Source: an uncultured Bacteroidota bacterium | GTDB taxonomy: Bacteria; Bacteroidota; Rhodothermia; Rhodothermales; Salinibacteraceae | DNA length: 64,000 nt | Assembly: GCA_913056185.1 (NCBI GenBank) | Contig: CAJXLV010000012.1 | Location: 3,688 to 67,687, forward strand | Reading direction: 5' to 3' | Part shown: positions 15,237 through 55,256 of the stretch, in pieces | Position numbering within the stretch: position 1 is the first letter of the stretch | How the letters are laid out: each line of letters starts with the position of its first letter | Translations under genes and position numbers: made by a program | Notes under the pieces: model-generated | Databases searched by the model: none | What the model saw: only the letters and a program-made list of their open reading frames with translations | Told to the model about the DNA's origin: nothing

Positions 15237-15749
15237 ATGGCCCGACGCATCAAGCGGTATGAGAACCGCAAGCTGTACGACTTGGAGCAGAGTGAGTACG
15301 TATCGTTGGACGATATCGCCGGCTTGGTACGAGCCGGTGAGACGGTGGAGGTTGTCGACAACGCTACCGGCCAAGACCTTACGGCCCAAACGCTCACGCA
15401 GGTTATTCTGGAGGAAGGGAAAAACGGACACGAGGTCCTCCCCTCGGACCGATTGCACACCCTCCTCCGCCGCAGCGAGGCCGTTCTGGACAGCGGACTG
15501 GACCAACTCCGAGCCACGGTGGAGGCGCTGATGGAGAATCCCCTGCAGCGATTGCGCCAACTCATGCAGCCTCCTCGCAAGAAAGAGATTAACCACCTCC
15601 GCCGGCAGTTGCGTCAGCTTGAACAGCGTCTCTCGGTGTTGCTGGACGAGGCGCGAACGCAGCGCTCGGAGGGGCCCGACGCGTCGTCCCCCTCACAGGC
15701 GGCGACGGAGGAGGCCCCAGCGCCCGACGAGGCCACGTCCGGCCAATAG
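15237..15749 (+). CDS. phaR: PHA synthesis regulator PhaR-like DNA-binding protein
   Basis: RIKRYENRKLYD...YVSLDDIAGLVRAGETVEVVDNATGQDLTAQTLTQVILEE, the PHB-accumulation N-terminal domain. AGGAG/GGAG lies upstream. Confidence 0.88.
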   Translation: MARRIKRYENRKLYDLEQSEYVSLDDIAGLVRAGETVEVVDNATGQDLTAQTLTQVILEEGKNGHEVLPSDRLHTLLRRSEAVLDSGLDQLRATVEALMENPLQRLRQLMQPPRKKEINHLRRQLRQLEQRLSVLLDEARTQRSEGPDASSPSQAATEEAPAPDEATSGQ

Positions 15750-15803
15750 CCGGGGGGCGTTTCCCACACTCGCATTTCTTTCACAACTCATTTCACACGC
15801 ACC

Positions 15804-16271
15804 ATGACCCCTGACAACAGCACCCCCGAACAGTCGTCTCCCGCCCCCGAGTCTGCCGCAGAAGCGGACACGCAGGCCGCGGAGCAGTCGCAAAGCGAAT
15901 TGACGGAGCGCGGCCGCGAGGTCTGGCTGGCTGGACTCGGCGCCCTCGCTACCGTGGAGGAGGAAGGCACCAAGCTCTTCAACCGCCTCGTGGACCGCGG
16001 GCAGCAGTTCGAGGAGAAGCGCCGCCACGAACTCGAAGAGGCCACCGAGAAGGTCCGCGAGCAGAGCGACGAAGCCATCTCCCAAATCGAAGAGGCCGGC
16101 GAGGAGACGCAGTCGATGCTCTCCAACTCCATTAACGCTGCTCTTGAGCGCTTCGGCGTGCCTACCCGCAACGAGGTGGACGACCTGGCAGGCAAGGTGG
16201 ACCATCTCTCGCAGCAGGTGGAGGCGCTCGCAGAAAGCCTCTCGGAGGAGACGCCGGACGAAGGCGAGTAG
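15804..16271 (+). CDS. Phasin, PhaI/PhaF-type granule-associated protein
   Basis: VWLAGLGAL...EEEGTKLFNRLVDRG and LERFGVPTRNEVDDL; no AAKP-type tail. Confidence 0.85.
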   Translation: MTPDNSTPEQSSPAPESAAEADTQAAEQSQSELTERGREVWLAGLGALATVEEEGTKLFNRLVDRGQQFEEKRRHELEEATEKVREQSDEAISQIEEAGEETQSMLSNSINAALERFGVPTRNEVDDLAGKVDHLSQQVEALAESLSEETPDEGE

Positions 16272-16299
16272 CCCCTCCCGAGTCCGTTCCCTCTACACA

Positions 16300-16328
16300 G
16301 GAGCCCCCGCCGCGGGGGCTCCTTTTTT
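16300..16328 (+). terminator. Intrinsic terminator after phaR-phasin
   Basis: GGAGCCCCCG-CCG-CGGGGGCTCC followed by TTTTTT. Confidence 0.85.
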
Positions 16329-16418
16329 GTGCGCATGCCCCATGACCGCAGCCCGGTCGGAACCGCTTCCGGCCTTCTCCGATAGAACGAGCGATTTTTG
16401 AAAAGCCCCACTCCCGTG

Positions 16419-17708
16419 ATGCCGTCCCCCCCGCCGCCTGCTCGAAGTACCGTTGGCCTCGCGTGTGCCGGGGGCGTGATCGAGGGAGCCATCTACGAGA
16501 TTGGGGCCCTCTGTGCCGTCGACGAAGCGGTCGACGGCATCGACCTGCACGCGCTGGACATCTACGTGGGGGTAAGCTCCGGGGCCCTCGTAAGCGGCAT
16601 GCTGGCCAACGGCGTCGCCGCCCAAGCGCTGAGCCGCGCCGTCGTGTCCGAATCGCCGGACCCCTCCCTCAACCTGCAGCCCGAGGTGCTCTTTCGACCG
16701 GCCTTTCGGGAGTATGCCGGGCGGCTGCGCCGGCTGCCGGGCACGGTCCTCTCTTCGCTCCGCTACTACCTTCTCAATCCCGGCGACCTGTCCCTGCTCG
16801 GCCTCCTTACCACGTTCGGCTCTGTCGTGCCCACGGGCCTGTTCACCAACGCGCCCCTCGAGCGCTTTCTCGCCACGGCCTTCTCCACGGGCGGACGCAC
16901 GAACGACTTCCGGACGCTCGCCCGCAAGCTCTACGTGGTCGCCATGAACCTCGACTCCGCCGAGGTCACTGTGTTTGGCGAACCCGGATACGATCACGTG
17001 CCCATCTCCACTGCCATCCAGGCCTCCACGGCCCTGCCGGGCCTCTACACACCGGTCGAGATCGACGGCCAGTACTACATCGACGGGGTGGCGCGCCGCA
17101 CCGTGCACGCGAGCGTGGGCCTGAATGCCGGGGCCGACCTGCTGTTCTGCATCAACCCCATCGTCCCCATCAACGTGCAGCTCCACCAACACGCCGACCG
17201 GCTGCTGGAGCAGCACGCAAACGGTGAGGCCCAGAGCCTCGCCGAGCGCGGGCTCCCGACGGTGCTGTCGCAAACCTTCCGCGCCATCGTCGACTCCCGC
17301 AAGCGCACCGGGTTCAAAAAGTACGAGCACACCCACCCGGACGCCGATCTCATCTTGATTGAGCCGGAGTGCGACGACGAGAGCCTGTTCTTCTCCAACA
17401 TCTTCAGCTTCAAAAACCGCCACGACGTGTGCGAGCACGCCTACCAGGCCACGCGCGAGCACCTGCGCGACCGGGCCGAGACGCTTCGGCCCCTGCTGCA
17501 GCGCCACGGCCTGTCGCTGCGCATGGACGTGCTGGAGGACGATCGCCGCTTGCTGTACGACGTGCCGCTCAGCGAGCGCTCCGAGGCCACCTGGTCGCCA
17601 CCGGTGACCATGGCGGAGGTGCTCGACGAAACCAACGACACCCTGGACCGCCTCGATGGCCTCCTCGACCGGCTGTACGCGCGCTCGGGCGAGCCCCCGG
17701 CGCCCTGA
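16419..17708 (+). CDS. Patatin-like phospholipase/lipase
   Basis: CAGGVIEGAIYEIG Gly-rich loop, GVSSG nucleophile, YIDGV catalytic Asp. The start could alternatively be TTG 16398. Confidence 0.88.
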   Translation: MPSPPPPARSTVGLACAGGVIEGAIYEIGALCAVDEAVDGIDLHALDIYVGVSSGALVSGMLANGVAAQALSRAVVSESPDPSLNLQPEVLFRPAFREYAGRLRRLPGTVLSSLRYYLLNPGDLSLLGLLTTFGSVVPTGLFTNAPLERFLATAFSTGGRTNDFRTLARKLYVVAMNLDSAEVTVFGEPGYDHVPISTAIQASTALPGLYTPVEIDGQYYIDGVARRTVHASVGLNAGADLLFCINPIVPINVQLHQHADRLLEQHANGEAQSLAERGLPTVLSQTFRAIVDSRKRTGFKKYEHTHPDADLILIEPECDDESLFFSNIFSFKNRHDVCEHAYQATREHLRDRAETLRPLLQRHGLSLRMDVLEDDRRLLYDVPLSERSEATWSPPVTMAEVLDETNDTLDRLDGLLDRLYARSGEPPAP

Positions 17709-17771: not shown

Positions 17772-19628
17772 CTACCGGGCCCACACCGCCAGCCCTCCAC
17801 CAATCACAAACAGCGGGATGGAGAGCCAGAGCGGGCCGCCCTGCACCGCAGCAATTACGCCCCCGATGATGCAGGCCCCCGCCAGGACACTGCTCCGCAG
17901 CCCCGCAAGCGGATCGCTCGGCGGCTCGTCGGTCAGCGTCTCTTCAAACTGCGCGACCCCGGAGGTCAGCAGCTGCGGCAGCTCCAGCGCCACGTCCACC
18001 AACTCGGGGGCGTTGCTGAGCAGTTCGGACCCCAGCGTGAAGGGACTAAACCGCTCCCGAAAGATGCGCTGCACGTGCCGGCGCGATACGGCCACCACGT
18101 CGAGATCCGGGTCGAGCGTGCGCCCCACTCCCTCAAACGTCACCAGCGCCTTCACCATCAGCGTCATCTCCACAGGGAAGAAGATGCGGTATCGGGCGCC
18201 CAGGCTCAGCGACTGTAGAATGACCTGGGCGAGGCTGATGGATCCTTTTTTGCTCCGCATCAAGAAGTGCCGCGCCATGTCCGACACTGCGCGCCGGAAT
18301 CCCTGCGGGTCGCCCCCCTCGCCCACCCGCGCCATGTCCAGCAGATAGCGGGCCGCGCTCTCCACATCCCCGCGCACCAGGGCGTAGTAGTAGTACAGCA
18401 TGCGCCGCTTGATGTCGGCCCGGAAGCGCCCCACCATCCCCAGGTCGATAAACCCGATCTTCAGATCCTCGGGCCGCTCGCCCGGCAGAATCTTGAGGTT
18501 GCCCGCGTGCAGGTCGGCGTGGAAGAAGCCGTCCTTGTAGAGCATGCGAATGATGGCCGACGCCCCAAGATCGACCACTCGCTGCCGCTCGGCGTCGCTC
18601 AGGTCGAGCACCGCGCGGGAGTTGGGCCGGATGCCGCCGAGGTACTGCATCGTGAGCACGTCGCCGGTGCTCAGGTCGCGGTACACGTCGGGAAACACAA
18701 TGTCGGGCGCGTCCTGGAAGTTGGCCGCGAAGATTTCGGCGTGGTCGGCCTCGTAGTCGAAGTCAATTTCTCGCCGCGTGTAGGCGCTGAACTCTTCGAT
18801 GATCTGCTTCGGCTGGTAGCGCGGGAGCAGCCACTGCAGAAAGCCGCCAAAGAACTGAAGCAGTTTCAGATCGGAGGTCACGACGTCCCGGATGCCGGGC
18901 TTGATGACCTTGACCACCACGTCGTCGCCGTCGTGGGTGGTGGCGCGGTGCACCTGCGCGATGGAGGCGGCGCCGAGGGGATCGGGATCGATGGCCCGGA
19001 ACCGCCCGTCGACGGGCGCCCCCAGTTCTCGCTCGATAATGGCCTGCACCTGCTCGAACGGGATGGGCGGCAGGTGGTCCATGAGGCTGCCGAGCTCCTC
19101 CGTGATCGGCTCCGGCAGCAGGTCCTCCCGGATCGCCATAATCTGCCCCAGCTTGGTGAAGGTGGGGCCCAGGATTTCGAGGCGGCGCCGGAGCTGCGTC
19201 GGAAATGGGCGGTCGCGCAGGTCGCTCCGCACGAACGGCTGCAGGAGCGCGGCCAGGGTGCGCTTGCCCAGCGAGCGGAGGCCGCTCTTCTGCACCGCAG
19301 GCAGGGAGCGCACGTACGCAATGTGCCCGCCCATCAGCAGTCCGGCCACGTGCCGCCACACCGTAAAGAACCGCCGCACGGCGCCACGATACGGCGCCAG
19401 CGGATCGAAGTCGGTGAACGGCGAGGACTGCGTCGACGCGCCGGGGGCTCCGTCCTCCGGCGGGCCGTCGCCGGACGGAAAGGCGGAGGCCCGTGCGCCG
19501 GGAAGGGCCTCTGTGTCTTCAGGAGGCCGGTCCGGCGCACGTCCGTTGCCGCCCTGCTCCGCTGCCCACTCGCCCTCGCTCCCCTCTTCTGCACCGGACG
19601 GCGACGATGTAGACTCGGACGGAGCCAT
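17772..19628 (-). CDS. AarF/ABC1/UbiB family atypical kinase
   Basis: LGPTFTKLGQ, AASIAQVH, VVKV, FFHADLHAGN and IDLGMVG; two C-terminal TM helices. Confidence 0.9.
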   Translation of the reverse strand: MAPSESTSSPSGAEEGSEGEWAAEQGGNGRAPDRPPEDTEALPGARASAFPSGDGPPEDGAPGASTQSSPFTDFDPLAPYRGAVRRFFTVWRHVAGLLMGGHIAYVRSLPAVQKSGLRSLGKRTLAALLQPFVRSDLRDRPFPTQLRRRLEILGPTFTKLGQIMAIREDLLPEPITEELGSLMDHLPPIPFEQVQAIIERELGAPVDGRFRAIDPDPLGAASIAQVHRATTHDGDDVVVKVIKPGIRDVVTSDLKLLQFFGGFLQWLLPRYQPKQIIEEFSAYTRREIDFDYEADHAEIFAANFQDAPDIVFPDVYRDLSTGDVLTMQYLGGIRPNSRAVLDLSDAERQRVVDLGASAIIRMLYKDGFFHADLHAGNLKILPGERPEDLKIGFIDLGMVGRFRADIKRRMLYYYYALVRGDVESAARYLLDMARVGEGGDPQGFRRAVSDMARHFLMRSKKGSISLAQVILQSLSLGARYRIFFPVEMTLMVKALVTFEGVGRTLDPDLDVVAVSRRHVQRIFRERFSPFTLGSELLSNAPELVDVALELPQLLTSGVAQFEETLTDEPPSDPLAGLRSSVLAGACIIGGVIAAVQGGPLWLSIPLFVIGGGLAVWAR

Positions 19629-21517: not shown

Positions 21518-21940
21518 CTATCCTGGCCGCCGAGGAGTCACCCCCTCGACCCGGTCAAAGTCCTGATCGAACGTGTACGCCTCTTCGAGGCCGTGGTGCT
21601 CCATCCACGCCGCGCTGTAACAGTCGGCAAAGTCGATGTTTTTCTCTTCGTACCACACAATGGCTTGGAGCAGGATCTCCTGGTCCTCAACGGTCAATCC
21701 TGGAAGCCCCAGAATGGCCACGACTTTCGCCCGGATGGAGGGCCGATCCAGCTCGTAGACCGATTCGAGGACCCAGACAATTTCTGCGATGGTGAGAACG
21801 GTCGTTACGAGGCGCTCCTCTCCTCGCTCCGCACGCTCCAGGAGATTGCGCGCGTTGGAGGCCTGCTCGGGGACATCTCCCGTCAGATGGCGAAGGAAGA
21901 CGTTTGCGCCGACAAGTGCAGGCTCGGAGTCATCGGACAT
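21518..21940 (-). CDS. vapC: PIN-domain (VapC-like) toxin; first catalytic Asp replaced by Gly
   Basis: LVGANVFLR (canonical VDxN), IAEIVW, DFADC and TFDQDF; overlaps the upstream antitoxin. Confidence 0.82.
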   Translation of the reverse strand: MSDDSEPALVGANVFLRHLTGDVPEQASNARNLLERAERGEERLVTTVLTIAEIVWVLESVYELDRPSIRAKVVAILGLPGLTVEDQEILLQAIVWYEEKNIDFADCYSAAWMEHHGLEEAYTFDQDFDRVEGVTPRRPG

Positions 21941-22154
21941 CGGACTCAGCGGGCTCGGAGGGCATCAAAATCTTGCGCCCCCCTACCTCAATCGACCCGT
22001 AGTGATCGGAGAGCGACTCGTTGAGTGGAAGCAACGAAATCGCACCACCTCGCTTCACGAAGGCCACCCGCTGCCCCTCCTCAATGTCCAGAGCCTCCCG
22101 AATTTCCTTCGGCAACATCAGTTGTCCCCGTCGCCCGACTTTTGCCGTATTCAT
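21930..22154 (-). CDS. vapB: AbrB/MazE/SpoVT-type antitoxin (VapB-like); C-terminus possibly frameshifted
   Basis: AKVGRRGQLMLPKEIREALDIEEGQRVAF; G6 run at 21978-21983. Confidence 0.8.
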   Translation of the reverse strand: MNTAKVGRRGQLMLPKEIREALDIEEGQRVAFVKRGGAISLLPLNESLSDHYGSIEVGGRKILMPSEPAESDVR

Positions 22155-22694: not shown

Positions 22695-24203
22695 TTATTC
22701 GTCGCGAAAGCCGGACGCCATGGCGTGGCGCTGCCGGCAAAGCAGGCGCCCGATCTCTCGGGTCCAGACAGGGCTCAGTGCAACGCCGAGTGCCCCCAGT
22801 GCCAAAACGGTTACCAGCGCCACTGACCGCCCAAGCCCGACCCAAAGCCCGACAGGCAGAGTCATCGCCACCAGCATCCCTACAAACCCGCCGGCAAACG
22901 TGGTCGTGGTGTTGCCCTGATAGTTGAAGAACGCGCTCTGGTCGAGCGCGACGGCCTCTCGCCCCCATACGCCCAACCCGAGAAAAAAGGACGGCACCAC
23001 ACCCAGGTTGTAGATCAACAGTGCCCCCATCGGCACAATCATCGACGGGCGAAGCCCCCCCGCTACCGGCAATACCACCGCAGTGCCCGCTACACTGAGC
23101 ACGCAGAACGTTGCGTACTGCGACCGCACGAGCGTCCGGGGGCGCACTGCCCGTGCCAGAAGTCCATCGAAGTGCGCGCCGTGCCAGGCGTAGACAAAGC
23201 CTACGTACTGGAATCCCAAAAACCCCGTCAGCACGATGCTGAACGTGACTGTGATGAACGCATCGAGCACAGGTGGCGGTGCCTCCCCACCGGTTGTTGT
23301 GACAACCTGAAACAAGAACACAGCCTCCAGCAGCAGCGCGCCCAGTAGCATCTGCCGCGGCCGCTTGTTGCGAAGGATGAGCCTCAGGTCCAGCAGTGCC
23401 AGCGACACCACGCACCCCCATCCGCGGCCCGCCCCTCGGAAGATCCCTGTAGACTGCGTGCGAGAGGGCTCCGTGTTCCCCAACACGCTGTAAAGCCGAC
23501 CCCGAAGCGTCCGGTGGGCCGCTACGGCCAGGGCAGCCGTTCCGGCGAAAAGCAGGGTCATCGGAAGGATCCGCCCCGCTGCCAGCCCTCCAAAGAGCCC
23601 CGCCGACGCGGATTGGAGCAGTTGTCCTCCCGTCCAGGAGCCCCCCGCCACGACGACCGCGAGAAGGCCAGCCGCACCGAGCACGCGTCTGGCGTGTCGG
23701 TCCCACACGGCCCGGAGGAGGCCGTTCAGGAACTGCGTGGTCGCCACCAGCAGGAGCGCTCCGATGGCCCAAAAGGCCGCCCCCACCGCCGAGGTTGCAG
23801 GACGCACCGTGCTTCCCCAGAGCGACGCGAGGACGACGACCGGCAGCAGGTTCAGCAGGCTCAGAGACGAGAGGCCCTGCAGGATGCGAACGACCTGTGG
23901 TCGCCGAAGGGGCAGATGCAGATACGGCCGCACGTCGCTCCCGGCGGAGCGCTGCAGGAAGAAGCGCATCGGGACGAGCCCCACCGCGCCGTACAGAAGA
24001 AACTCATTGAGCAACCGCAGCGGATCTTGCCCCGGTGCCACCTCCGCCACAATCTCCGGGAAAAACCAGCCGACCGCTACAAAGAGGGACCCAAAGTACG
24101 CGGCCGCCAGCAGGAGGAGCAGCCCCCCAATCAGGCTGCGCCCGAAGGTCGGCGAGCGAGTCCGTTGATGCCACTGGTGGCGGAGGACGTCAAGAAGCGT
24201 CAT
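22695..24203 (-). CDS. DUF5687-like polytopic membrane protein (ABC permease-like), paralogue 1
   Basis: About 12 TM segments, LILRNKRPRQ, FDGLLARAV and C-terminal RHAMASGFR. Confidence 0.8.
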   Translation of the reverse strand: MTLLDVLRHQWHQRTRSPTFGRSLIGGLLLLLAAAYFGSLFVAVGWFFPEIVAEVAPGQDPLRLLNEFLLYGAVGLVPMRFFLQRSAGSDVRPYLHLPLRRPQVVRILQGLSSLSLLNLLPVVVLASLWGSTVRPATSAVGAAFWAIGALLLVATTQFLNGLLRAVWDRHARRVLGAAGLLAVVVAGGSWTGGQLLQSASAGLFGGLAAGRILPMTLLFAGTAALAVAAHRTLRGRLYSVLGNTEPSRTQSTGIFRGAGRGWGCVVSLALLDLRLILRNKRPRQMLLGALLLEAVFLFQVVTTTGGEAPPPVLDAFITVTFSIVLTGFLGFQYVGFVYAWHGAHFDGLLARAVRPRTLVRSQYATFCVLSVAGTAVVLPVAGGLRPSMIVPMGALLIYNLGVVPSFFLGLGVWGREAVALDQSAFFNYQGNTTTTFAGGFVGMLVAMTLPVGLWVGLGRSVALVTVLALGALGVALSPVWTREIGRLLCRQRHAMASGFRDE

Positions 24204-24262
24204 GATGAATCAGCTCCATAGCGGGACGCGTCGGCAGGGACCTCTTCGTTTCTGTTCTCGTC

Positions 24263-25774
24263 TCAGATCGGCTCGTTCTCGCGGAAGCCTTCCAGCATCG
24301 CGTGCCGGTGGCGCTTCAACTCACGAGCGAAGGGCTGCAGGGTCCAGGCCACCACACCGAGCCCAGCGAGTCCGGCGCCGCCCAGTACCGCCGCGACGAG
24401 CAGCCAGCCGCCCGTCGCGTACGCCGCAATCGTTCCCACCAACAAGCCGAAGGGGATCGGAAGCAATATCAGCCCTCTTGAAGATTCAGTCATGGCCATC
24501 GAAGCGCTTGACGCAGACGTGTCGACCGGCATCCGGAAGCGAGGCCCGACGTATGCGATGGCGGGGGTGCCCACGCCCCACCAGTACAGGGTACAGCCCA
24601 GAAGAAACATCGCGTAGTCGGGCCGAATCCAGGGCGCCAGCGCAGGCAGGAGCAGGCTTCCGGGAAGCAGTCCCGTCCAGAGCAGAGCCAGCTTGGACGT
24701 CACGACCTTCGAGAACGAATGTGGACGGGTGAACAGGCCATCGACGTGCCCCGCCGAGATCCCGTAGATTGCACTTCCGACGGTAAAGGATGGCCACCCA
24801 ATTCCAAAAAACGCGATGTACAGGATCCCATTGAAGCCGATCGCGCCTTTCAGCACGAGTTCGGAAACCCCAATTCCGTAGAACAGCACCGCGCAGATGA
24901 TCCCCATCAGGGCGATTCCCCGCATCCTTCGCGTCCGGAGCATCTGTCGTAGCTCCAGCGCCACGAGGCGCCCCGCCGGCAGCGTCCGTTCGGCCCAGCG
25001 GCAGAGCGCCTGCTCCCACCACGAGGGCCCGTCCCGCCGACGCATCGTCCGCCGGTCCACCTCCAGTCGTGTCTGCATGGCACAGAGGAGTCCGGCATGC
25101 AGCCCAGTCGATAGGAAGGCAGTGCACGCGAGCCCCACCAGCGGCCGGCTAAAGATGACCCGAGACGCGGCCCGGAACAGATCGGGGCCCAGGGTAGCGT
25201 CCACCGAGAAGAGCCCAACGACCAGTGCGATCACACCCGCGAGGCCCCGTGGCCGCCATCCCAGTAGCAGATGAAGAAGGATGGCCCCGTGGCTCGCGAG
25301 CACGACCGTCAGCAGCAGCGCCGTGGCGAGCCACGCGCCCGCCGCGCCCGGCGACCACGCCGTCACGACCTCTGCCGCCCACACGGGGACCACCAGCACG
25401 ACGGCAAACACCGTGTGCACCGACAGGAGCGACAGGAGCGCCTGCCCATTGAGCAGGCCCCTCCGCGACACCGGAAGGACCGTGTAGGACGCCACCTGCT
25501 CCGACGGGGGCGACTGCAGAAGGAAACGGCTCGCCATCAGAGCAGGCATCAGGTAGAGCATTCCCCCGTTGATGAGCGCCTGCGCATCGGCCTCCGGGAA
25601 GAGCTCCCGCAGCACGTCGCCCAGCACATAGCTTCCGAGCCCCAGCGGCGCCAGCAGGAACAGCAGGAGGCCGAGCAGGACAATTTGCCCCGCCACCGTA
25701 CCAGTGCCCCACGTCGGGTCGCGCAGCCAGCGCGTCACGCGGTGCCGGAATAGAATGCGGAACGTGCGCATCAC
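24263..25774 (-). CDS. DUF5687-like polytopic membrane protein, paralogue 2
   Basis: QMLRTRRMR, VDGLFTRP and C-terminal RHAMLEGFR. Confidence 0.78.
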   Translation of the reverse strand: MMRTFRILFRHRVTRWLRDPTWGTGTVAGQIVLLGLLLFLLAPLGLGSYVLGDVLRELFPEADAQALINGGMLYLMPALMASRFLLQSPPSEQVASYTVLPVSRRGLLNGQALLSLLSVHTVFAVVLVVPVWAAEVVTAWSPGAAGAWLATALLLTVVLASHGAILLHLLLGWRPRGLAGVIALVVGLFSVDATLGPDLFRAASRVIFSRPLVGLACTAFLSTGLHAGLLCAMQTRLEVDRRTMRRRDGPSWWEQALCRWAERTLPAGRLVALELRQMLRTRRMRGIALMGIICAVLFYGIGVSELVLKGAIGFNGILYIAFFGIGWPSFTVGSAIYGISAGHVDGLFTRPHSFSKVVTSKLALLWTGLLPGSLLLPALAPWIRPDYAMFLLGCTLYWWGVGTPAIAYVGPRFRMPVDTSASSASMAMTESSRGLILLPIPFGLLVGTIAAYATGGWLLVAAVLGGAGLAGLGVVAWTLQPFARELKRHRHAMLEGFRENEPI

Positions 25775-25834
25775 GGTCGGAAAGATCGCTGAAGTCAGGG
25801 AAAGGTTGTTTCTCTGGCGCCCTTTTCCACCTCT

Positions 25835-43832: not shown

Positions 43833-44030
43833 GAGCACGCAAAGACCGGACCGACAAACACGAAGACACCGCTGCAGCAAGGGCGCGGCGTCTGCGCAAG
43901 GTGGCACGCAGCGTCCGCAAAGTAAAGCCCTATCGGCGCACAGCAGGCCCCGGAAAACGTCGGAGGGCGCGGGACTCAAGTCCTACGCAGGGCCCTCCCG
44001 CATGCCTTCGAGACAACACTTCCTGCGCGC

Positions 44031-44759: not shown

Positions 44760-44819
44760 GAGTGCAACAATAGACCAATAGGAGCACGAAGAGGAGACCG
44801 TCACCGGATGCACCAGGGC

Positions 44820-45398: not shown

Positions 45399-45449
45399 CG
45401 GGAAAGAGGGGCGTGTGGGGTGTGGGGCAGGAGTTCGAGTGCAAATTGG

Positions 45450-46055
45450 TCACGCATCGAGCGTGCCGGCGAGCGCCGTCTCGTTGGACGCCTCCATCAT
45501 CTTGCGCAGGTTTTTCAGGGCATACCGCATGCGACCGAGCGCCGTGTTGATGGATACGTCCTGAAGCTCGGCAATTTCACGGAAGGTCAGGTCCGTCTCC
45601 TGGCGCAGAAGCAGCACCTCGCGCTGCTCGGGCGCCAGCTCATCGATGTGGGCGTCCAGCCACTCGCGCTGCTCGGCGCGGTGGAGCTGCTCGTCGGCGT
45701 ACGGCGCGTCGGCCTCCAGGGTGTCCCAGAAGGAACGGCCGTCATCTTCGCCCTGGGGCACTTCCTTCCACTTCTTCTGCTTGCGGGTGTGGTCGATGGC
45801 CGCGTTGCGCGCAATGCTCATCACCCAACTCAGCCACTGGCCCCGACGGTCGTAGGACCCCCGCTCGCCCTGCATGGCCTTGATCACGCGCTCAAAGGTT
45901 TCCTGGAAGAGATCATTCGCCGTGGCGCGGTCCTTGACCATGCCCATGAGGTAGCCAAAGATACGGTCCTGGTGTCGCTCCACGAGCCGACGGAAGGCCT
46001 GCCCGTCTTCCTCCTCCAGGTACCTTGTCACCAATTCTTCGTCGGTAGGCTGCAT
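45450..46055 (-). CDS. ECF sigma-70 factor
   Basis: DLFQETF, WVMSIARNAAID, TFREIAE and SINTALGRMRYA. Confidence 0.93.
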   Translation of the reverse strand: MQPTDEELVTRYLEEEDGQAFRRLVERHQDRIFGYLMGMVKDRATANDLFQETFERVIKAMQGERGSYDRRGQWLSWVMSIARNAAIDHTRKQKKWKEVPQGEDDGRSFWDTLEADAPYADEQLHRAEQREWLDAHIDELAPEQREVLLLRQETDLTFREIAELQDVSINTALGRMRYALKNLRKMMEASNETALAGTLDA

Positions 46056-46083
46056 GCGGAATCCCATCTGTTGGCAGTGCCGG

Positions 46084-48786: not shown

Positions 48787-48841
48787 CGCCCCGGCGCCCT
48801 CTCCCGTGTTCGCGGCCTTCTGCGTTTCGTCTCGCCTCTCG

Positions 48842-49618
48842 ATGATTGAAGTGCGCAACATCTCGAAAAGCTTCGGCGACCTCCAGGTCCTCAGCGACGT
48901 ATCGCTGGACGTGCGTGAGGGGGAGAAGCTGGCCATTATTGGCCGGTCTGGGTCCGGCAAAAGCGTGCTCATGAAGCACCTCGTGGGCCTGCTGAAGCCG
49001 GACACCGGCCACGTGTACGTGGACGACCAGGACCTCTGCTGTGCCTCCTACGAGCGGCTGCGCGAATTGCGCAAGCGGTTCGGCGTGCTGTTTCAGGGCG
49101 GCGCGCTCTTCGACTCTATGTCGAGCTTCGAAAACATCGCGTTTCCACTGCGCTACTTCTCGTCGCTCTCGGACGCCGAAATTGAGACGCGGGTGCAGGA
49201 CTGTCTGGACCTGGTCAACCTCTCGGACGTGGGCGCCAAAAACCCTTCGGAGCTGTCCGGCGGCATGCGCAAGCGGGTGGCCCTGGCCCGGGCCATCTCC
49301 ATGGAGCCGGCCTACATCCTGTACGACGAGCCCACCAGCGGGCTCGACCCCGAAACCTCCAATACGATCAACGACCTAATCAATCAGCTCGCCCGCGAGC
49401 TCAACGTCACGAGCGTCGTGATTACGCACGACATGCACTCGGTCCTCGAGGTGGCCGATCGCGTGGCCTTTCTCCACAATCAGGACCTGGAGTGGGTGGG
49501 GCCGGTGGCCGAGGTGCACGACTGTGCAAGCCCCAACCTCAACTCGTTCGTCCGGGCCAGCGAATACAAAATCGGCGATCCGTCTCCCACCTCGCCCCTG
49601 TCGGAGCCGTCGCCGTAG
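48842..49618 (+). CDS. mlaF: MlaF-family ABC ATPase
   Basis: GRSGSGKS, LFQGGALFDS, LSGGMRKRVALARA and YDEPTSGLDP. Confidence 0.93.
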   Translation: MIEVRNISKSFGDLQVLSDVSLDVREGEKLAIIGRSGSGKSVLMKHLVGLLKPDTGHVYVDDQDLCCASYERLRELRKRFGVLFQGGALFDSMSSFENIAFPLRYFSSLSDAEIETRVQDCLDLVNLSDVGAKNPSELSGGMRKRVALARAISMEPAYILYDEPTSGLDPETSNTINDLINQLARELNVTSVVITHDMHSVLEVADRVAFLHNQDLEWVGPVAEVHDCASPNLNSFVRASEYKIGDPSPTSPLSEPSP

Positions 49619-49658
49619 CGCCCCTGCCTCATGCTCTTTCTGTCTGACGCTTCCCCGC

Positions 49659-50591
49659 ATGCAATACAGCAACGAACTGAAGGTTGGCGCCGCCATCATT
49701 TTGGCGGTCGTTGCGGCCTTCGTCGGCATTCGGTTTTTCCAGAACGTGCCCCTCTTCGAGAGCTCCTACACGCTCTACGCCGAGTTTGACAACGCCAACG
49801 GGCTGGTGTCCGGCAAGCCGGTGCGGATGAAGGGCGTGAAGGTCGGCTCGGTGGAGCGCGTGCAGCTGGACCCGCAGTCGCAGACGGTGCGCGTGGAGAT
49901 GAAGCTGGAGCGCGGCCCGCGCGTTCCGGAAGGCTCTGAGGCATCGGTGGCGGGCATCAGTGCGCTCGGGGGGGTGCACGTAAGCATCGCGCCCGGCCCG
50001 CGCAACAACCCGCAGCTGGCACCGGGGGCCACCCTCGGCACGCCGGACGCCCCCTCCTCCCTGGGCCGCCTCACCGAACAGGCCCCGGCCCTCGCCTCCA
50101 AGGCCGACAGTGTGCTCCGCAACACGAACGCAACGATGGCGTCGCTCAACCGCCTGCTCCGCCGTCCGGACAGCGACCTCCGCCAGTCCCTCGCGGCCCT
50201 GCGCGGCATGGCCACCGACCTCGAACAGGTGACCGACGCGGAAAAGGCCACCCTCCGGCGACTGCTCCAAAACCTGGAGTCCGTCTCGGGCGACCTGCGC
50301 GACTTCACCGGCGAGAACAGCGACTCCCTGGACGTGGCGATCCGACGCCTCAACCAGTCGCTCGACCGCCTCAACCGCGGGCTCGCCTCCTTCGAACAGA
50401 CCTCCGCCACCCTCGACACCATCGCCACGAAGCTCAACGAGGGCTCCGGCACGGCCGGTCGCCTCCTCAACGATCCTGGCCTCTACGTGAGGCTCGACTC
50501 CGCCGCGGCGCAGGCCAACACGCTGCTCAAGGACTTCCAGAACGACCCCGGGCGCTACCTGGAGGACCTGACGCTGGTGAAGGTGTTTTAG
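49659..50591 (+). CDS. mlaD: MlaD/MCE-family protein
   Basis: N-terminal TM helix, F.NANGL..G.PVRMKGVKVGSV, and a long helical C-terminus. Confidence 0.9.
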   Translation: MQYSNELKVGAAIILAVVAAFVGIRFFQNVPLFESSYTLYAEFDNANGLVSGKPVRMKGVKVGSVERVQLDPQSQTVRVEMKLERGPRVPEGSEASVAGISALGGVHVSIAPGPRNNPQLAPGATLGTPDAPSSLGRLTEQAPALASKADSVLRNTNATMASLNRLLRRPDSDLRQSLAALRGMATDLEQVTDAEKATLRRLLQNLESVSGDLRDFTGENSDSLDVAIRRLNQSLDRLNRGLASFEQTSATLDTIATKLNEGSGTAGRLLNDPGLYVRLDSAAAQANTLLKDFQNDPGRYLEDLTLVKVF

Positions 50592-50736
50592 CCGCCCTGT
50601 GTTGCCCCCCGGCGAGACGGCAGGCCTCGCAGCACGGAGCTGGGAGAGCCCGACGTCCCGCCTCCCGGACACACGCACCCTGCTGCGCCGGCATACCCTG
50701 CTGCACCTGCATCCCCTGCGGACCGCCTCGCTGCTC

Positions 50737-51912
50737 ATGGCCTCATCGGACACCCGCACGGACGCTGCCTCCCCCAACCGGGATGCCTCGCCCCCCGGCA
50801 CTCCAGCCTCCTGGCCGCGGCTGCAGCGGCACGTCCTGCGACGGGCGGGCCGCCACCTGCTCCGGTCGAGCGATCGCACGGACACTGACGAGGTGGCCCC
50901 GCCGCCTCGCCAAACGGGCGGCTATGCCCGCTGGCTGCCCGTGCTCCGGGCCCTGCCGTGGGTGCTGGGCACACTATTCGCGGTGTCGTTCGTATGGGAT
51001 TTTCCGGGCGTGCGCTTCACGGTGGCCGGCTACCCCATCGTCCTCGAGAACCTGCTGCGCTTCACCGCGGTGAGCGGCCTTGTGGGCTTTGGCACCAACT
51101 GGCTCGCCATCACCATGCTGTTTCGGCCCCGCGCGCCGCGCCCCATCGTGGGCCAGGGCCTGGTGCCCGCCCAACGCGAACGGGTGGCCTACCGCCTCGC
51201 ACAAGCGGTAAGCGACGAGCTCATCAACAAGGCCCTCATCAAGCAAAAAATCCGGGAGAGTGGACTCATCACCGAGTACCGCGACCGCCTCGTCGCCGCG
51301 GCCGGCGATGTGGTTGCCAGCAACGCGGTGCGGGCCGAAACGAAGGCTCTGCTCCGGCGGGTGCTGCACGACCTCCTTTCAACCCCGGCGGTGCAAGACC
51401 GCATCGTGGACTTTACGGTGGAGCGCGTGGAGGAGCACGCCAGCGACGGATTTTCGGGGCTGGCGCTGCGCACCTATCGCTTTTTTGGGGAGGCCGACTT
51501 CCGCGAGCGCCTCTACGAAGCGGTGGAGCAGCTGCCCACGGCCGTCGATCCATTGCTCGACGAGATCGACCCCTGGCTTGACCGCCTCCCCGCCCGCATC
51601 GAACGCCACGGCGACGCCCTCGAAGACACCCTGATGCAGGTGATCCTTCGTCTCGTCGATGCCTTCGACGTGGAGCGCATGATCTACGAGAACGTGCGGG
51701 CGTACGACGAGCAGCAGCTCGAGCTTCTCCTGCGCCGCACCACCAACGAGCAGCTTACCTATATCAAGTACCTGGGGGCAGTGCTGGGCATCATCGGCGG
51801 CTTTATCATCTGGGCGCCCGCCCTGGCGCTGGTCATCGTCACTGCCCTCGGGCTGTCCCTCTACGCCCTCGACGAGGCCCTCGTCCGGGCCCGCCCCACA
51901 GGCGTCGACTGA
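50737..51912 (+). CDS. DUF445 family membrane protein
   Basis: LVGFGTNWLAITMLFRP...GLVP and EQLTYIKYLGAVLGIIGG. Confidence 0.85.
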   Translation: MASSDTRTDAASPNRDASPPGTPASWPRLQRHVLRRAGRHLLRSSDRTDTDEVAPPPRQTGGYARWLPVLRALPWVLGTLFAVSFVWDFPGVRFTVAGYPIVLENLLRFTAVSGLVGFGTNWLAITMLFRPRAPRPIVGQGLVPAQRERVAYRLAQAVSDELINKALIKQKIRESGLITEYRDRLVAAAGDVVASNAVRAETKALLRRVLHDLLSTPAVQDRIVDFTVERVEEHASDGFSGLALRTYRFFGEADFRERLYEAVEQLPTAVDPLLDEIDPWLDRLPARIERHGDALEDTLMQVILRLVDAFDVERMIYENVRAYDEQQLELLLRRTTNEQLTYIKYLGAVLGIIGGFIIWAPALALVIVTALGLSLYALDEALVRARPTGVD

Positions 51913-51927
51913 CGCGCCCCAAACGCC

Positions 51928-52572
51928 TCAGAGCATCTCGGCGAACCAGTCCGCCGCCGCCTGTGCCACCTCTTCCAGTTCCCCCCTCCCCCGGAACAGG
52001 TGTCCGGCCCCCTCCACCACATGAAACGCCTTGGTGCACGTGAGCTGCGCATAGGCCTCCTGGTTGAGGCGGTGAACTTGCGTGTCGGCGCCCCCCACAA
52101 TGAACAAGCACGGTGCCTGTACGTCCGGAAGGGCCTCCGGCGCCATGTCCACCCGCCCGCCCCGCGACACGATGGCCCCCACGCGCTCGTTCGAGGGCGC
52201 GCGGGAGGCTGCCTGCAGGGCCGCCGCCGCCCCGGTGCTGGCCCCAAAATACCCCACGCGCAACGACGTTGTCTCCGGCCGGCGCCCCAGCCACTGCGTC
52301 ACCGCCCGCAGGCGCTCGCTCAGCAGCGGAATGTCAAAGCGCGCCTCCGGCACACGGTCTTCCACCTCCGTCAGCAGGTCGAACAAAAGCGTCCCCAGGC
52401 GCCGATCGCGCAGCACGTGCGCCACGTAGTTGTTGCGCGGGCTCTTTCGGCTGGAGCCGCTTCCATGGACAAACACCACAAGCCCCGTCGCCCCCTCCGG
52501 AATTTCCAGGGCGCCTTCCAGTACTACGTCATCGAGGGTGATGGACACCAGGGTTTCTGAAAGGGGGGCCAT
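51928..52572 (-). CDS. Dienelactone-hydrolase-like alpha/beta hydrolase
   Basis: HGSGSSR.SPRN, GYFGASTG, VSRGGR, VGGAD and GAGHLF. Confidence 0.85.
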   Translation of the reverse strand: MAPLSETLVSITLDDVVLEGALEIPEGATGLVVFVHGSGSSRKSPRNNYVAHVLRDRRLGTLLFDLLTEVEDRVPEARFDIPLLSERLRAVTQWLGRRPETTSLRVGYFGASTGAAAALQAASRAPSNERVGAIVSRGGRVDMAPEALPDVQAPCLFIVGGADTQVHRLNQEAYAQLTCTKAFHVVEGAGHLFRGRGELEEVAQAAADWFAEML

Positions 52573-52866
52573 GGCTTCGCTCTGCGCTGTTGAACGGTCT
52601 CCCGGCCGACTGCCAGGGAGACCCTCAAGGTAGCACGGCGCTCCACGGCGCGCCGTCCACGTCCGGAGCACACTCGACTCCGCGGATTGTGGCCCCCTCG
52701 TGCCCAAACTCTCCCGACCGGCCGCGCAGCCGGATGGTCCCTGCTGATCCTACGGGCACGACGTGCGTACACGTCTTGCAAACGAGCGCTTTCCCCCTCC
52801 CGGCATCGGCCGCGATCCGTAGCCCGCCCCGTTCGCCCTTCTGTGCCCTTTTGCCCTCCTGCACAC

Positions 52867-54252
52867 ATGAAAACACACGAGCCCCTTTCCGGTGTCGATG
52901 CGGCCTGGTTGCGCATGGACGCCCCCACCAACCTGATGACGATCACGGTGGTGCTTGAGCTCGCTGCCCCGATGGACGTGGACGCGCTGAAGGCGCTGCT
53001 GAAGGAGCGATTTCTCGGGTTCACGCGGTTCCGCCAACGGGTGCAAAACCCCGACGGGGCTCCGTATTGGGAGCTCGACCCGCACTTCGACCTCGACCAG
53101 CACGTGCACCGCGGGGCCCTGCCCGGGGCGGCCGGCAAGGAGGAACTAAAGGAGCGCGTAAGCGACCGGATGAGCGTGCCGCTCGATCGCTCAAAGCCCC
53201 TGTGGCAGATGGAGCTCATCGAAGCGTACCGGGGCGGCAGCGCCATCATCGTCCGCCTGCACCACTGCATCGGTGATGGAATGGCCCTGTTGCAGGTGCT
53301 GCTATCGCTGGCCGACGAGTATTTTGACCCCGACCGCTTTCCCTCCACCGAGCACCGCGGAGGGCTTCTGCCCGGCCCGGTGCGCGGCGCGCTCAATGCG
53401 GCGCGAGGCACGTTGAACACTGGACGCCGCCTGCTCCAGGAAGGCGCACGGGCGCTCACCGGTCCCTCTCACGCCCTGCACCGCGTCAAACAGAGCCTCA
53501 GCGTCGGGGCGGCGCTCTCCAAGTTCGTCTCTCTTTGTCCTGACACGGGCACGCCTCTGCGCGGCGACCTTGGCGTAGCACAACGAGCTACATGGTCTGA
53601 GCCTCTTTCCCTCACCCGCATCAAACGCCTCGGCCGCGTGATCGACGCGAAGGTGAACGATGTGCTCCTCGGGGCCGTGGCGGGGGCGCTGCGGCACTAC
53701 ATCGCCTCCCGGGACGCCCTGGATTCGGCAGACACCGTGCGGGCCCTCATTCCGGTCAACCTCCGCCCGCCCGAGCAGGCCTTCGAGCTGGGCAACCGCT
53801 TTGGGCTCGTGTTTCTGGACCTCCCCGTGGGCCTGGAGAACCGGCTGGAGCGCGTGCTGGCGGTGAAAGCGCAGATGGACGAGATTAAGAACTCGGCCGA
53901 GGCGATCGCGGCACTCGGGGTGCTCGAAAGCCTCGGCTACGTGCCGCTGGGGGTGGAAGACGAAGCCGTCCGCTACTTTAGCAACAAAGCCAGCGCGGTG
54001 ATGACGAACGTGCCGGGGCCGCAAGAGCCGCTGCACCTGGCCGGGCGGCGCCTCAAGATGGTGATGCCCTGGGTGCCCCGGGCTGGGCACGTGGGCCTGG
54101 GCGTCAGCGTCTTTAGCTACGACGGCGAGGTGCGGCTGGGCATTGCCTGCGACGCGGGCCTCATTCCGGACCCCGACCCCATTGTCGAGACGTTTGCGGA
54201 CGAGTTCGACCGCCTCGCCGCCCGCCTCTTGCCCACCCCAGATGCGTCTTGA
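52867..54252 (+). CDS. Wax ester synthase/diacylglycerol acyltransferase (WS/DGAT)
   Basis: LSGVDAAWLRMD, LDRSKPLWQM, catalytic HHCIGDG, KVNDVLL, PVNLR, LGNRFG and TNVPGP. Confidence 0.93.
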   Translation: MKTHEPLSGVDAAWLRMDAPTNLMTITVVLELAAPMDVDALKALLKERFLGFTRFRQRVQNPDGAPYWELDPHFDLDQHVHRGALPGAAGKEELKERVSDRMSVPLDRSKPLWQMELIEAYRGGSAIIVRLHHCIGDGMALLQVLLSLADEYFDPDRFPSTEHRGGLLPGPVRGALNAARGTLNTGRRLLQEGARALTGPSHALHRVKQSLSVGAALSKFVSLCPDTGTPLRGDLGVAQRATWSEPLSLTRIKRLGRVIDAKVNDVLLGAVAGALRHYIASRDALDSADTVRALIPVNLRPPEQAFELGNRFGLVFLDLPVGLENRLERVLAVKAQMDEIKNSAEAIAALGVLESLGYVPLGVEDEAVRYFSNKASAVMTNVPGPQEPLHLAGRRLKMVMPWVPRAGHVGLGVSVFSYDGEVRLGIACDAGLIPDPDPIVETFADEFDRLAARLLPTPDAS

Positions 54253-54267
54253 CTCCCTGGCCCCAGG

Positions 54268-54753
54268 CTATGCGTCTGTGCGCCGCACGGTGTCGGTGAG
54301 GCGATCAACGCGGTCGCTCAACGCCTCAACCTGATCCTTCAGCGCGTCTACGTCGTCGCGGGAGGGCACGCCGATGCGCTGCAGGGCGGCGTTCACCTCC
54401 TCCTGCACCCGCTCTTCGGCGGCCTGCATTGCGTCGGGCTCTTGGGTCGCCCGCCGCACCTGCCGGGCCCGCTGCTCCCGCCGCTCGCGCTGGGCCTGCT
54501 CCCAGGATTTGCCCTCCTCCACAAGCGCGTCGAACACCTGCGCCCCGGCACTCTGCGCCACGTCGAGCAGACCGAGCCCCGCCCACCACGCCGCCCGTGT
54601 GCCCCGGACCAGCCCCGACACCACGTCGCCGGGGCCTGGTAGCCTCCACCCGGACGACGCCGACGAGGCCGCCTGTGACGAACGGGTGCGTCGGTGGCGC
54701 GATCGATCCTTTGTGCCGCGAGTAACCGTGATTGTAGGGCTGTCGTCGCTCAT
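54268..54753 (-). CDS. Phasin, PhaI/PhaF-type (second copy)
   Basis: AWWAGLGLL...GAQVFDALVEEG and LQRIGVPSRDDVDAL. Confidence 0.82.
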   Translation of the reverse strand: MSDDSPTITVTRGTKDRSRHRRTRSSQAASSASSGWRLPGPGDVVSGLVRGTRAAWWAGLGLLDVAQSAGAQVFDALVEEGKSWEQAQRERREQRARQVRRATQEPDAMQAAEERVQEEVNAALQRIGVPSRDDVDALKDQVEALSDRVDRLTDTVRRTDA

Positions 54754-54815
54754 GACTGAAAGGAGGAGTTCTGTAGAGACGATTGTGCAGGTGCGGGGTG
54801 CGGACGCGGAAGCGG

Positions 54816-55256
54816 TTAGTATACTTTTTCGACGTCGGCCGCCACTGCGTTCATGCCTCGAAAGACCCCCATGTTGGACATAATCTGCATCATCGAGCCT
54901 TCGATCTGGTAGTCGGGGGAAGCGAGGGCCTCGGCGGCGCCCATCTCGCCCTTGTCCATGCGCACCCACACGTCGTAGTCGGCCGTGGCACGGGCCATGA
55001 CGGCCTCTTTGTCGACTGGCTCTTCGCGCATCTCGTCGGAGGGCGCCTCGTCGATCCAGAGATCTACGTCCACGACCGTGCCTTCGTCAAAGGTGTAGGT
55101 GGCAGAGACGTCTTCCCCCTCCGGAGTGTTGAAGCACCGGAGCTCGATGACGCTCGAGAAGCCGCCTGCGGTAGACTGAAACTCCTCGTCCTGGTTGAGG
55201 GCCTCGACAAAGCGCTCGACAAACGCGGGGGTCCAGTAGCGGGGGGCGTCGCTCAT
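54816..55256 (-). CDS. SCP2 sterol/lipid-binding domain protein
   Basis: FVERFVEALNQD, ATADYDVW...GEMGAAEAL....YQIEGSMMQIM (SCP2-like pattern). Confidence 0.7.
   Translation of the reverse strand: MSDAPRYWTPAFVERFVEALNQDEEFQSTAGGFSSVIELRCFNTPEGEDVSATYTFDEGTVVDVDLWIDEAPSDEMREEPVDKEAVMARATADYDVWVRMDKGEMGAAEALASPDYQIEGSMMQIMSNMGVFRGMNAVAADVEKVY

Follow-up and report, generated by a model that had tools for sequence, protein, structure and literature searches.

A candidate neutral-lipid storage module of PhaR-like, phasin, patatin, ABC1, SCP2-fold and WS/DGAT genes, carried as two loci in the Salinibacteraceae

Genes of the two loci

The window analysed here is a 64-kb stretch of DNA (66% G+C) from an uncultured member of the Salinibacteraceae, and its sequence recurs solely in metagenomes from brine, salt, salterns and hypersaline lakes. 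Two loci in this window are proposed to be the halves of a system for the storage of neutral lipid, that is, wax esters or triacylglycerol (TAG). Locus A encodes a PhaR-like regulator, a phasin (phasin 1), a patatin-like lipase and an ABC1 kinase, and locus B a WS/DGAT acyltransferase, a second phasin (phasin 2) and an SCP2-fold protein. These seven genes had been picked out in the original prediction, and domain searches found all of them at or near the places where it had put them. The 33 kb separating locus A from locus B hold housekeeping genes unrelated to the module. The seven genes are as follows:

15237-15749, plus strand: PhaR-like regulator, 170 aa (Pfam PF07879, PHB_acc_N, E 1e-25, residues 5-64)
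15804-16271, plus strand: phasin 1, 155 aa (PF05597, E 9e-34; hydrophobic motif VWLAGLGALA; isoelectric point (pI) 4.2)
16419-17708, plus strand: patatin-like lipase, 429 aa (PF01734, E 3.5e-22)
17772-19628, minus strand: ABC1/UbiB-family atypical kinase, 618 aa (PF03109, E 1e-64; C-terminal hydrophobic anchor)
52867-54252, plus strand: WS/DGAT acyltransferase, 461 aa (true start at about 52867; TIGR02946, 384 bits against a cut-off of 310)
54268-54753, minus strand: phasin 2, 161 aa (PF05597, E 3e-18; basic N-terminus)
54816-55256, minus strand: SCP2-fold protein, 146 aa, upstream of phasin 2 and co-directional with it

The regulator of locus A had been labelled PhaR, a name that holds for one part of the protein. 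The N-terminal PHB_acc_N DNA-binding domain is present, followed by a middle region of helical or coiled-coil character and, at the end, an acidic tail; the PHB_acc domain (PF05233), in contrast, gave no match in the Pfam search, and the TIGR01848 score of 80.6 bits lies under the PhaR equivalog cut-off of 109.45, so that we call the protein PhaR-like. A search of the PDB with the PhaR-like profile returned coiled-coil noise only. About 1,800 PhaR-like proteins were matched in the search, many of which JGI and NCBI call PHA (polyhydroxyalkanoate) repressor or regulator. Both phasins score above the PF05597 gathering threshold of 28.8 bits (116.7 for phasin 1, 66.3 for phasin 2) and under the trusted cut-off of TIGR01837 (90.5 and 59.4 against 94.7). 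In the patatin-like lipase, whose start according to the gene callers lies seven codons past the first possible one, the motifs of the Ser-Asp dyad, GVSSG and DGV, can be read from the translation. The ABC1 kinase falls under both UbiB equivalog cut-offs (TIGR01982, 325.6 against 487.55; NF003404, 270.9 against 667).

At locus B, the WS/DGAT gene converges on the phasin 2 and SCP2-like genes, an arrangement foreseen in the original prediction and confirmed by coordinates and domain searches; the stop codons of WS/DGAT and phasin 2 are 15 nt apart. The acyltransferase carries both domains of its family (PF03007, E 3e-33; PF06974, E 7e-40) and an intact HHxxxDG motif, HHCIGDG, which is invariant among orthologues save for one G to A change at the fifth position. 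Among solved structures it matches 6CHJ and 7NXG, the enzymes of Marinobacter and Acinetobacter (E 1e-26), HHCIGDG aligning with HHSLVDG of 6CHJ, and is 69-84% identical to the aligned orthologues and 91% identical to that of an uncultured 'Salinivenus sp.' metagenome-assembled genome (MAG). We propose that it is the wax-ester/TAG synthase of the module. Phasin 2 is just 57% identical to its orthologue in Salinibacter ruber, a species that has counterparts of the whole locus B triad (L009). The N-terminus of phasin 2 (54654-54753, minus strand) is basic (TRGTKDRSRHRRTRSS), and the pI of the protein is 6.6 amid an otherwise acidic proteome.

The 146-aa protein encoded upstream of phasin 2 is well kept, with 65-86% identity over the family and order. 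Its score against Pfam SCP2 (PF02036) is sub-threshold (17.2 against 21.3 bits, E 0.0068), and no PDB entry was matched by sequence. The AF2 model, built with 25 aligned database homologues (pLDDT 86.8, pTM 0.82), was matched best by Foldseek to the Thermus thermophilus SCP2 protein TT1886 (2CX7, 1WFR; TM 0.74-0.85, E 3e-8), with about 20 more SCP2 structures ranked below. The SCP2 label given in the original prediction is thus sound by predicted fold, though the sequence score is sub-threshold.

Conservation of the loci and merged clusters in other phyla

Conservation was followed outward from both loci. From locus B, a WS/DGAT alignment was searched against genome contigs, giving 80 loci, 30 of Salinibacteraceae/Rhodothermales and 50 of Chloroflexota and Acidobacteriota (43-49% WS/DGAT identity), and their six-frame open reading frames were searched with the window proteins. 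From locus A, a reverse scan with a PhaR-like alignment against metagenome contigs also gave 80 loci (40-57% identity, one locus at 92%), in which all probes were scored.

A phasin convergent with WS/DGAT was present in 26/26 of the Salinibacteraceae/Rhodothermales loci with usable downstream sequence (30 in total), and nearly all of these 26 also carry the SCP2-like gene. In four contexts of phasin 2 homologues (51-63% identity), the 146-aa gene precedes a phasin that faces WS/DGAT in 4/4, and the genes beyond this triad vary: S. ruber has a rhodopsin and a CBS protein there, L012 has GH113 and a Por-secreted protein, and L013 has Dus and EamA. In L041 a patatin is inserted between WS/DGAT and the phasin. 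On the side of locus A, the phasin directly follows the PhaR-like gene in 60 of the 66 loci of the reverse scan that could be evaluated, often as two paralogues, and the PhaR-phasin pair is followed by a patatin, as it is in the window, in 30 of 37 evaluable loci. Within Salinibacter species (three loci, L175-L177) the succession of PhaR-like gene, phasin and patatin is kept, with ABC1 convergent in two. Where at least 8 kb of sequence lay on one side (26 loci), the neighbours were ABC1 (10 loci), FcrA (9), a pair of ArsA genes (9), FadD (4) and WS/DGAT (1); PhaC was found in none. Loci A and B are both found in S. altiplanensis and in the MAG SW_9_63_38.

Several loci bring the components together. 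The 4.6-kb contig L103 holds, in order, a PhaR-like gene, a phasin, an SCP2 of Salinibacter type (E 9e-57), a second phasin and, on the opposite strand, WS/DGAT, a gene order that amounts to a fusion of loci A and B of the window. The order in L130 is ArsA, PhaR-like gene, phasin, patatin, WS/DGAT. In L104, a gene for a 444-aa PlsC-type acyltransferase (PF01553; 12333-13667, minus strand) takes the place of WS/DGAT, between the patatin and an ABC1-FadD-FcrA-ArsA series; its product may be an alternative synthase of waxes or esters.

The most extensive merging was seen in Acidobacteriota, where the cluster was defined by Pfam on L075 and by phmmer across loci. A PhaR-like gene lies near WS/DGAT and a phasin in L053, L059, L075, L082 and L089, and the four long loci (all save L053, which covers only 3 kb) also have an ABC1 gene, with FadD in three of the four. 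The order is an HMGR-like gene of FcrA type, ABC1, phasin, PhaR-like gene, WS/DGAT, a 143-aa SCP2, two ArsA/Get3-like ATPases and an acyl-CoA synthetase. The HMGR-like protein has an N-terminal extension and a score under the HMGR equivalog cut-off. The ABC1 protein matches that of the window at E 5e-180 and the phasin at E 4e-30 (phmmer); the PhaR-like protein has PHB_acc_N only, and its gene is divergent from WS/DGAT. With an FcrA-type reductase, ABC1, phasin, PhaR-like protein, WS/DGAT, SCP2 and FadD encoded together, loci A and B make up a single wax-ester cluster in Acidobacteriota. By sequence, the 143-aa protein is a genuine SCP2 (E of about 1e-45 to 2CX7 and 1WFR), and these two structures are the very ones that the 146-aa protein of the window matches by fold. 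Since the sequence similarity between the two proteins is weak (hhalign E 0.011, probability 4%), their relationship rests on fold. The isoelectric points differ as well, phasin 1, the SCP2-fold protein and the PhaR-like protein of the window having values of 4.2, 4.05 and 5.2, and their acidobacterial counterparts 9-10. The tails of the acidobacterial PhaR-like proteins are rich in K, R, A and P and recall the histone-like domain of PhaF; nucleic-acid binding by these tails, as by the basic N-terminus of phasin 2, is possible. The functional linkage of six families put forward in the original prediction is upheld by their merging with WS/DGAT and wax-ester genes in L103, L041, L130 and the five acidobacterial loci.

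Further genes adjoin these clusters outside the Salinibacteraceae. The ArsA/Get3-like ATPase pair stands beside the PhaR-phasin genes in L059, L075, L082, L089, L104, L107, L117, L121, L122, L142 and others, and none was found in the window. The best NCBIfam match of these ATPases is BagB of Mycobacterium tuberculosis (221 bits, below cut-off), and the pair might insert tail-anchored proteins into lipid bodies. In L075, a second SCP2 paralogue (4618-5079, minus strand) and a GMC-family oxidoreductase gene (2218-3843, plus strand) both adjoin FcrA; the pairing of GMC and FcrA is seen again in L110, L113 and L128, and the oxidoreductase might interconvert alcohol and aldehyde.

The genes of PHA synthesis were sought in the same material. 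The window searches bore out the earlier statement that no phaC, phaE, phaA or phaB lies in the 64 kb, and PhaZ was likewise not found. The PhaC probe, a Cupriavidus necator sequence validated against PDB 5HZ2 at 907 bits, found nothing in the window (best E 0.25), and the surroundings of 174 related loci, taken to about 10 kb and some 2.1 Mb in total, held no PhaC. An SDR gene neighbouring in the window was rejected as PhaB (127 against 302 bits). A soil-clone PhaC described as 'probably from Salinibacter' was set aside as uninformative, its best match being Burkholderia at 59%.

Predicted operators, transcription and neighbouring genes

Three regulatory elements of the window are relevant to the module:

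15191-15201, no strand assigned: candidate operator of the PhaR-like protein, palindrome ACGCAACGCGT, 36 nt upstream of the PhaR-like start
15100-15107, no strand assigned: second core, CGCACTGC, upstream of the PhaR-like gene
55293-55322, minus strand: predicted sigma-70-like promoter TTGCCA-N18-TACACT, 5' of the SCP2-like gene; its spacer is conserved (CCGCACGGC; CCCGCACGGC)

Across the PhaR-like loci, the upstream regions share a common architecture, namely a TTGACA element, 4-6 nt, and the palindrome TGCCGCA[C/G]TGCGGTA, whose right end enters a TAnnnT -10 element. The operator core occurs in 42 of 65 distinct upstream regions. In the relatives of the window the predicted operator sits between the -35 and -10 elements, which is the classical arrangement for autorepression, and the palindrome resembles the TGC-rich PhaR sites of alphaproteobacteria. 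In acidobacterial loci, the divergent intergenic region between WS/DGAT and the PhaR-like gene (or the phasin) holds two to three copies at a spacing of about 31 bp. Such copies are also present in L059 and L079, where the PhaR-like gene is not the immediate neighbour. The copies beside WS/DGAT in these and the other loci are the best evidence that the predicted regulator would act at the wax-synthase locus.

The palindrome of the window at 15191-15201 is the sole exact match to ACGCRNYGCGT in the 64 kb. With up to one mismatch the motif is at chance level in the window (15 found, 19.9 expected), and none of these lies 5' of locus B. The palindrome block is conserved 5' of the PhaR-like gene in four other Salinibacteraceae loci and is related to TGCCGCA[C/G]TGCGGTA; the five aligned Salinibacteraceae upstream regions share the pattern ...ATCAAT...ACGC-N3-GCGTCAAAA...TGACGCAWCGCGTTAC. 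The element of the Salinibacteraceae appears to have drifted from the cross-phylum form, and the operator assignment in the window is tentative. The element TTGCCA-N18-TACACT, which would act as the promoter of the SCP2-like gene, recurs in about 11-13 of the 26 distinct upstream regions (Salinibacter and Salinivenus species). Its spacer holds CCGCAC, half of the cross-phylum operator, and no full site.

Four salt-lake metatranscriptome assemblies contain contigs 93-99% identical to the window over locus A. Contig depth, a poor measure of expression with DNA carry-over possible, was 47-185x for the PhaR-like region, 10-19x for phasin 1, 9-33x for the patatin and 7-15x for ABC1, the PhaR-like region being the deepest of an 8-kb stretch in three of the four runs. 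Locus B was thinly covered (WS/DGAT fragments 5-20x, phasin 2 and SCP2 about 2x). Given these caveats on depth, the contigs show no more than that the genes are probably transcribed in nature.

Two sets of neighbouring genes might have a part in the module:

14276-15064, minus strand: alpha/beta hydrolase, divergent from the PhaR-like gene (Abhydrolase_1, E 9e-29)
48806-51912, plus strand: MlaF, MlaD and DUF445 genes (Pfam), upstream of WS/DGAT on the same strand, with MlaE further upstream

The divergent position of the hydrolase is kept in the Salinibacter loci L175 and L176 and lost in L177, and the protein is a possible accessory member of the module; as PhaZ or PhaC it was rejected (83 against 300 bits for the PHA depolymerase model). 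MlaD and DUF445 lie immediately 5' of WS/DGAT in most Salinibacteraceae loci (including L013 and L014, 12001-15969, and L016-L044), the exceptions being L012, L036 and L041. DUF445 abuts WS/DGAT in L013 and L016, so that an operon link between lipid transporter and acyltransferase is possible, as is membership of the Mla/DUF445 genes in the module. In the window and in L015, a dienelactone-hydrolase-like gene (51928-52707, minus strand) is interposed between DUF445 and WS/DGAT.

The remaining genes noted in the window are these:

21518-22130, minus strand: PIN-domain toxin and MazE/AbrB-type antitoxin beside a zf-CHY protein (annotation transferred from L001)
22695-29763, minus strand: three DUF5687 paralogues, each a membrane protein of about 500 aa, in a transporter-like array; an unannotated gap and a gene for an ABC ATPase separate the third from the other two
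41902-46067, minus strand: ECF sigma factor, two proteins without Pfam match and an N-acetylmuramoyl-L-alanine amidase, in the same order in L013 and L014
56726-59213, plus strand: small PLDc_N membrane protein, 259-aa protein without Pfam match and type I phosphodiesterase, a trio kept near locus B in L013 and L014

A proposed storage module for neutral lipid and its rivals

We consider it fairly probable that loci A and B are split halves of one conserved module for neutral-lipid storage. The neutral-lipid reading is favoured because the pairing of phasin and WS/DGAT is retained, because the acidobacterial cluster is merged and carries its operator, and because in the PhaR-like scan a phasin and a patatin usually adjoin the regulator gene, with ABC1, FcrA and FadD common and PhaC absent. 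The original prediction had placed a PhaR-type regulator and phasins in the service of neutral lipid, which comparative genomics favours, and had explained this as a co-option in a salt-in halophile. The latter part is not supported, as soil and other metagenomes, and Acidobacteriota too, commonly contain the same module. Judging from the gene neighbourhoods, the association is older and far wider than the halophiles, the Salinibacteraceae carrying the module in two pieces and with acidified proteins.

The module might operate in the following manner. WS/DGAT would join acyl-CoA to fatty alcohol or diacylglycerol, yielding wax ester or TAG, and the two PF05597 phasins would coat the nascent hydrophobic body, a role with a precedent in the phasin GA14 of Rhodococcus ruber, which occurs on lipid inclusions (PMC5658603). 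The SCP2-fold protein could shuttle or present lipid substrates, the patatin lipase would mobilise the stored lipid, and the ABC1 kinase may regulate or service the body, by analogy with the ABC1K proteins on plastoglobules. The PhaR-like protein would repress its own promoter and the phasin-patatin operon through the palindromic operator overlapping the promoter, and would be titrated away by the hydrophobic surface as it appears, by analogy with PhaR on polyhydroxybutyrate (PHB) granules. We infer droplet formation, coat binding, titration, the kind of product and what ABC1 and SCP2 do from the gene families and these analogies.

The proposed circuit shares with the PhaR-PhaP circuit of Cupriavidus necator, Paracoccus denitrificans and Rhodobacter sphaeroides a PHB_acc_N regulator encoded beside a phasin and, in the relatives of the window, a TGC-rich palindrome overlapping the regulator's own promoter. 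It differs in that PF05233 is missing and TIGR01848 is below cut-off, in a phasin of PF05597 (PhaF/PhaI type) and not PhaP1, and in its neighbours, which are patatin, ABC1, FcrA, FadD, WS/DGAT and SCP2, PhaCAB never being seen. With PhaF and PhaI of Pseudomonas (phaC1ZC2DFI), the phasins have in common PF05597, the WLAGLG motif and a C-terminal leucine-zipper-like helix; unlike these, they lack the histone-like AAKP tail, lie outside any pha cluster and score below the TIGR01837 cut-off, and one copy is always convergent with WS/DGAT. In Rhodococcus, TAG droplets are coated by a small and abundant protein, TadA/MLDS, whose gene adjoins that of a dedicated transcriptional regulator, MLDSR. The coat-plus-regulator logic is the same, and the coat families (apolipoprotein-like/HBHA-like against PF05597) and the regulators are unrelated. 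Proteomes of plastoglobules and eukaryotic lipid droplets contain ABC1K kinases, patatin-domain TAG lipases (ATGL/SDP1) and SCP2 carriers. The same three classes recur here, with the differences that the system is bacterial and operon-encoded and has a phasin in place of fibrillin, perilipin or oleosin; the resemblance is one of function and does not imply common descent.

Closest on the metabolic side is the FcrA/FadD/WS-DGAT pathway, in which FcrA has been shown by experiment to act as the fatty acyl-CoA reductase that serves wax-ester synthesis (PMC11948995). The WS/DGAT of the window has close relatives in Promineifilaceae and Holophagae, groups used or cited in that work, whose authors saw an HMGR-like FcrA beside WS/DGAT in a Holophagaceae contig (PMC11948995). 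The acidobacterial clusters found here hold an N-terminally extended HMGR-like FcrA beside WS/DGAT and FadD. In contrast to the present clusters, the paper and its supplement never mention a phasin; they were not searched for PhaR, patatin, ABC1 or SCP2 (PMC11948995). No report in the literature searched connects clusters of WS/DGAT or FcrA with PhaR-like regulators and PF05597 phasins. The nearest precedent is a passing mention of one betaproteobacterial WS/DGAT scaffold with a putative phasin, which was treated as PHA-related (PMC10351704). The component families, the PhaR/phasin logic and the FcrA-WS/DGAT pathway are thus already known, and it is their linkage that appears to be new.

Several observations weigh against a module for neutral lipid. 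WS/DGAT lies near the PhaR-like gene in just 2 of the 80 loci of the reverse scan, and a phasin within 10 kb of WS/DGAT in just 8 of the 50 loci from outside Rhodothermota. The core GCA[C/G]TGC was not found upstream of the SCP2-like and WS/DGAT genes in any Salinibacteraceae locus, and relaxed palindromes upstream of the locus B genes are at background frequency (3/26, against a mean of 1.2-4 in random windows). The amphipathic-helix statistics of the two phasins are not significant, 9 and 47 of 300 shuffles reaching the observed maximum. Neither the window nor the 10 kb around the Salinibacteraceae loci yielded a fatty acyl-CoA reductase; the product there could be TAG, or the reductase could be encoded elsewhere. 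FcrA also serves outside wax-ester synthesis, according to its authors (PMC11948995). The literature searched held no report on PHA, phaC, phasin, wax ester, TAG or inclusions in Salinibacter or Salinibacteraceae. Finally, the absence of PhaC is limited to the window and the neighbourhoods of the 174 loci.

This last point bears on the main rival, namely that locus A, perhaps together with phasin 2, belongs to ordinary PHA granules whose synthase is encoded elsewhere, the adjacency to WS/DGAT being synteny without shared function. The Pfam and NCBIfam names are all PHA-derived, and Haloferax mediterranei has a patatin-type PHA depolymerase, PhaZh1. The proposal is the main rival because phasin-plus-patatin operons occur also in PHB producers (PMC7203880), a fact that counts against our own reading. 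In the slr0058-slr0061 operon of Synechocystis, the PhaF-like Slr0058 and the patatin Slr0060 are encoded together, as here, and Slr0060 was isolated with PHB granules, GFP-Slr0058 not being co-localised; unlike the present system, that host makes PHB with PhaEC, and no PhaR-like protein, WS/DGAT or ABC1 is reported there (PMC7203880). The patatin alone is no argument for neutral lipid, because patatin-type proteins are tied to PHA granules as well. On the other hand, PhaC was found within about 10 kb in 0 of 174 loci, while FcrA, FadD, WS/DGAT, the PlsC-type acyltransferase and SCP2 recur, the PhaR-like protein lacks PHB_acc and stays under the PhaR equivalog cut-off, and the acidobacterial operators fall within the intergenic region shared with WS/DGAT. 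The silence of the literature searched on PHA and phaC in Salinibacter also speaks against a granule module, and the phaC genes of Namib halite metagenomes have been ascribed to haloarchaea and Alphaproteobacteria. On balance, an ordinary PHA module seems to us unlikely.

We consider it very unlikely that the phasins and the PhaR-like protein are a shared coat and regulator for mixed PHA and neutral-lipid inclusions, serving whichever body forms. Phasins bind hydrophobic surfaces with little specificity, and GA14 of R. ruber provides a precedent, this phasin having been found on both PHA and lipid inclusions (PMC5658603); the two diverged paralogues, one per locus, would also suit such a role. 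Against this, none of the neighbourhoods contains PhaC, and there is no evidence of PHA in Salinibacteraceae.

The proximity of the Mla genes raises another alternative, in which the genes serve the homeostasis of envelope and membrane lipids, WS/DGAT acylating a pigment glycoside or a polar or Mla-handled outer-membrane lipid and the phasins being membrane-stress or chaperone proteins. That most Salinibacteraceae loci carry MlaFD-DUF445 immediately 5' of WS/DGAT, in the same orientation, agrees with it, as does the action of ABC1/UbiB proteins on membrane prenyl-lipids elsewhere. Chaperone-like effects of phasins have also been reported (PMC5658603). Yet the Mla linkage is gone in L012, L036, L041 and all the Acidobacteriota clusters, where phasin, SCP2 and WS/DGAT stay together; the clustering with FcrA and FadD implies fatty alcohol and acyl-CoA, that is, wax esters (PMC11948995); and the closest solved homologues of WS/DGAT are genuine wax/TAG synthases. 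This alternative is accordingly given very little credence. A chance co-location of the six families is rejected, because the phasin-WS/DGAT pairing is kept in 26/26 loci with changing flanks and the families cluster independently, in a different gene order, in a second phylum.

Returning to the neutral-lipid module, it can be surmised, with about even odds, that a lipid-droplet toolkit extends across phyla, made up of a PhaR-like repressor with its operator, phasins, patatin, ABC1 and SCP2, often with a Get3/BagAB-like pair, beside genes for wax esters or TAG; many genes annotated as 'PhaR' or 'PHA granule' would then lie outside PHA metabolism. To our knowledge, no generally accepted coat-and-regulator system exists for bacterial neutral-lipid bodies outside actinobacteria. 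If the proposal is true, it would offer a genetic handle on how wax-ester and TAG droplets are built, sensed and emptied in diderms of at least three phyla, and would correct a systematic mis-annotation of PhaR-like proteins. It would also supply parts for the engineering of wax esters, namely coat proteins and an operator with its repressor that would respond to lipid bodies. For the Salinibacteraceae, dominant saltern bacteria for which no carbon reserve is reported in the literature searched, it would predict the storage of neutral lipid.

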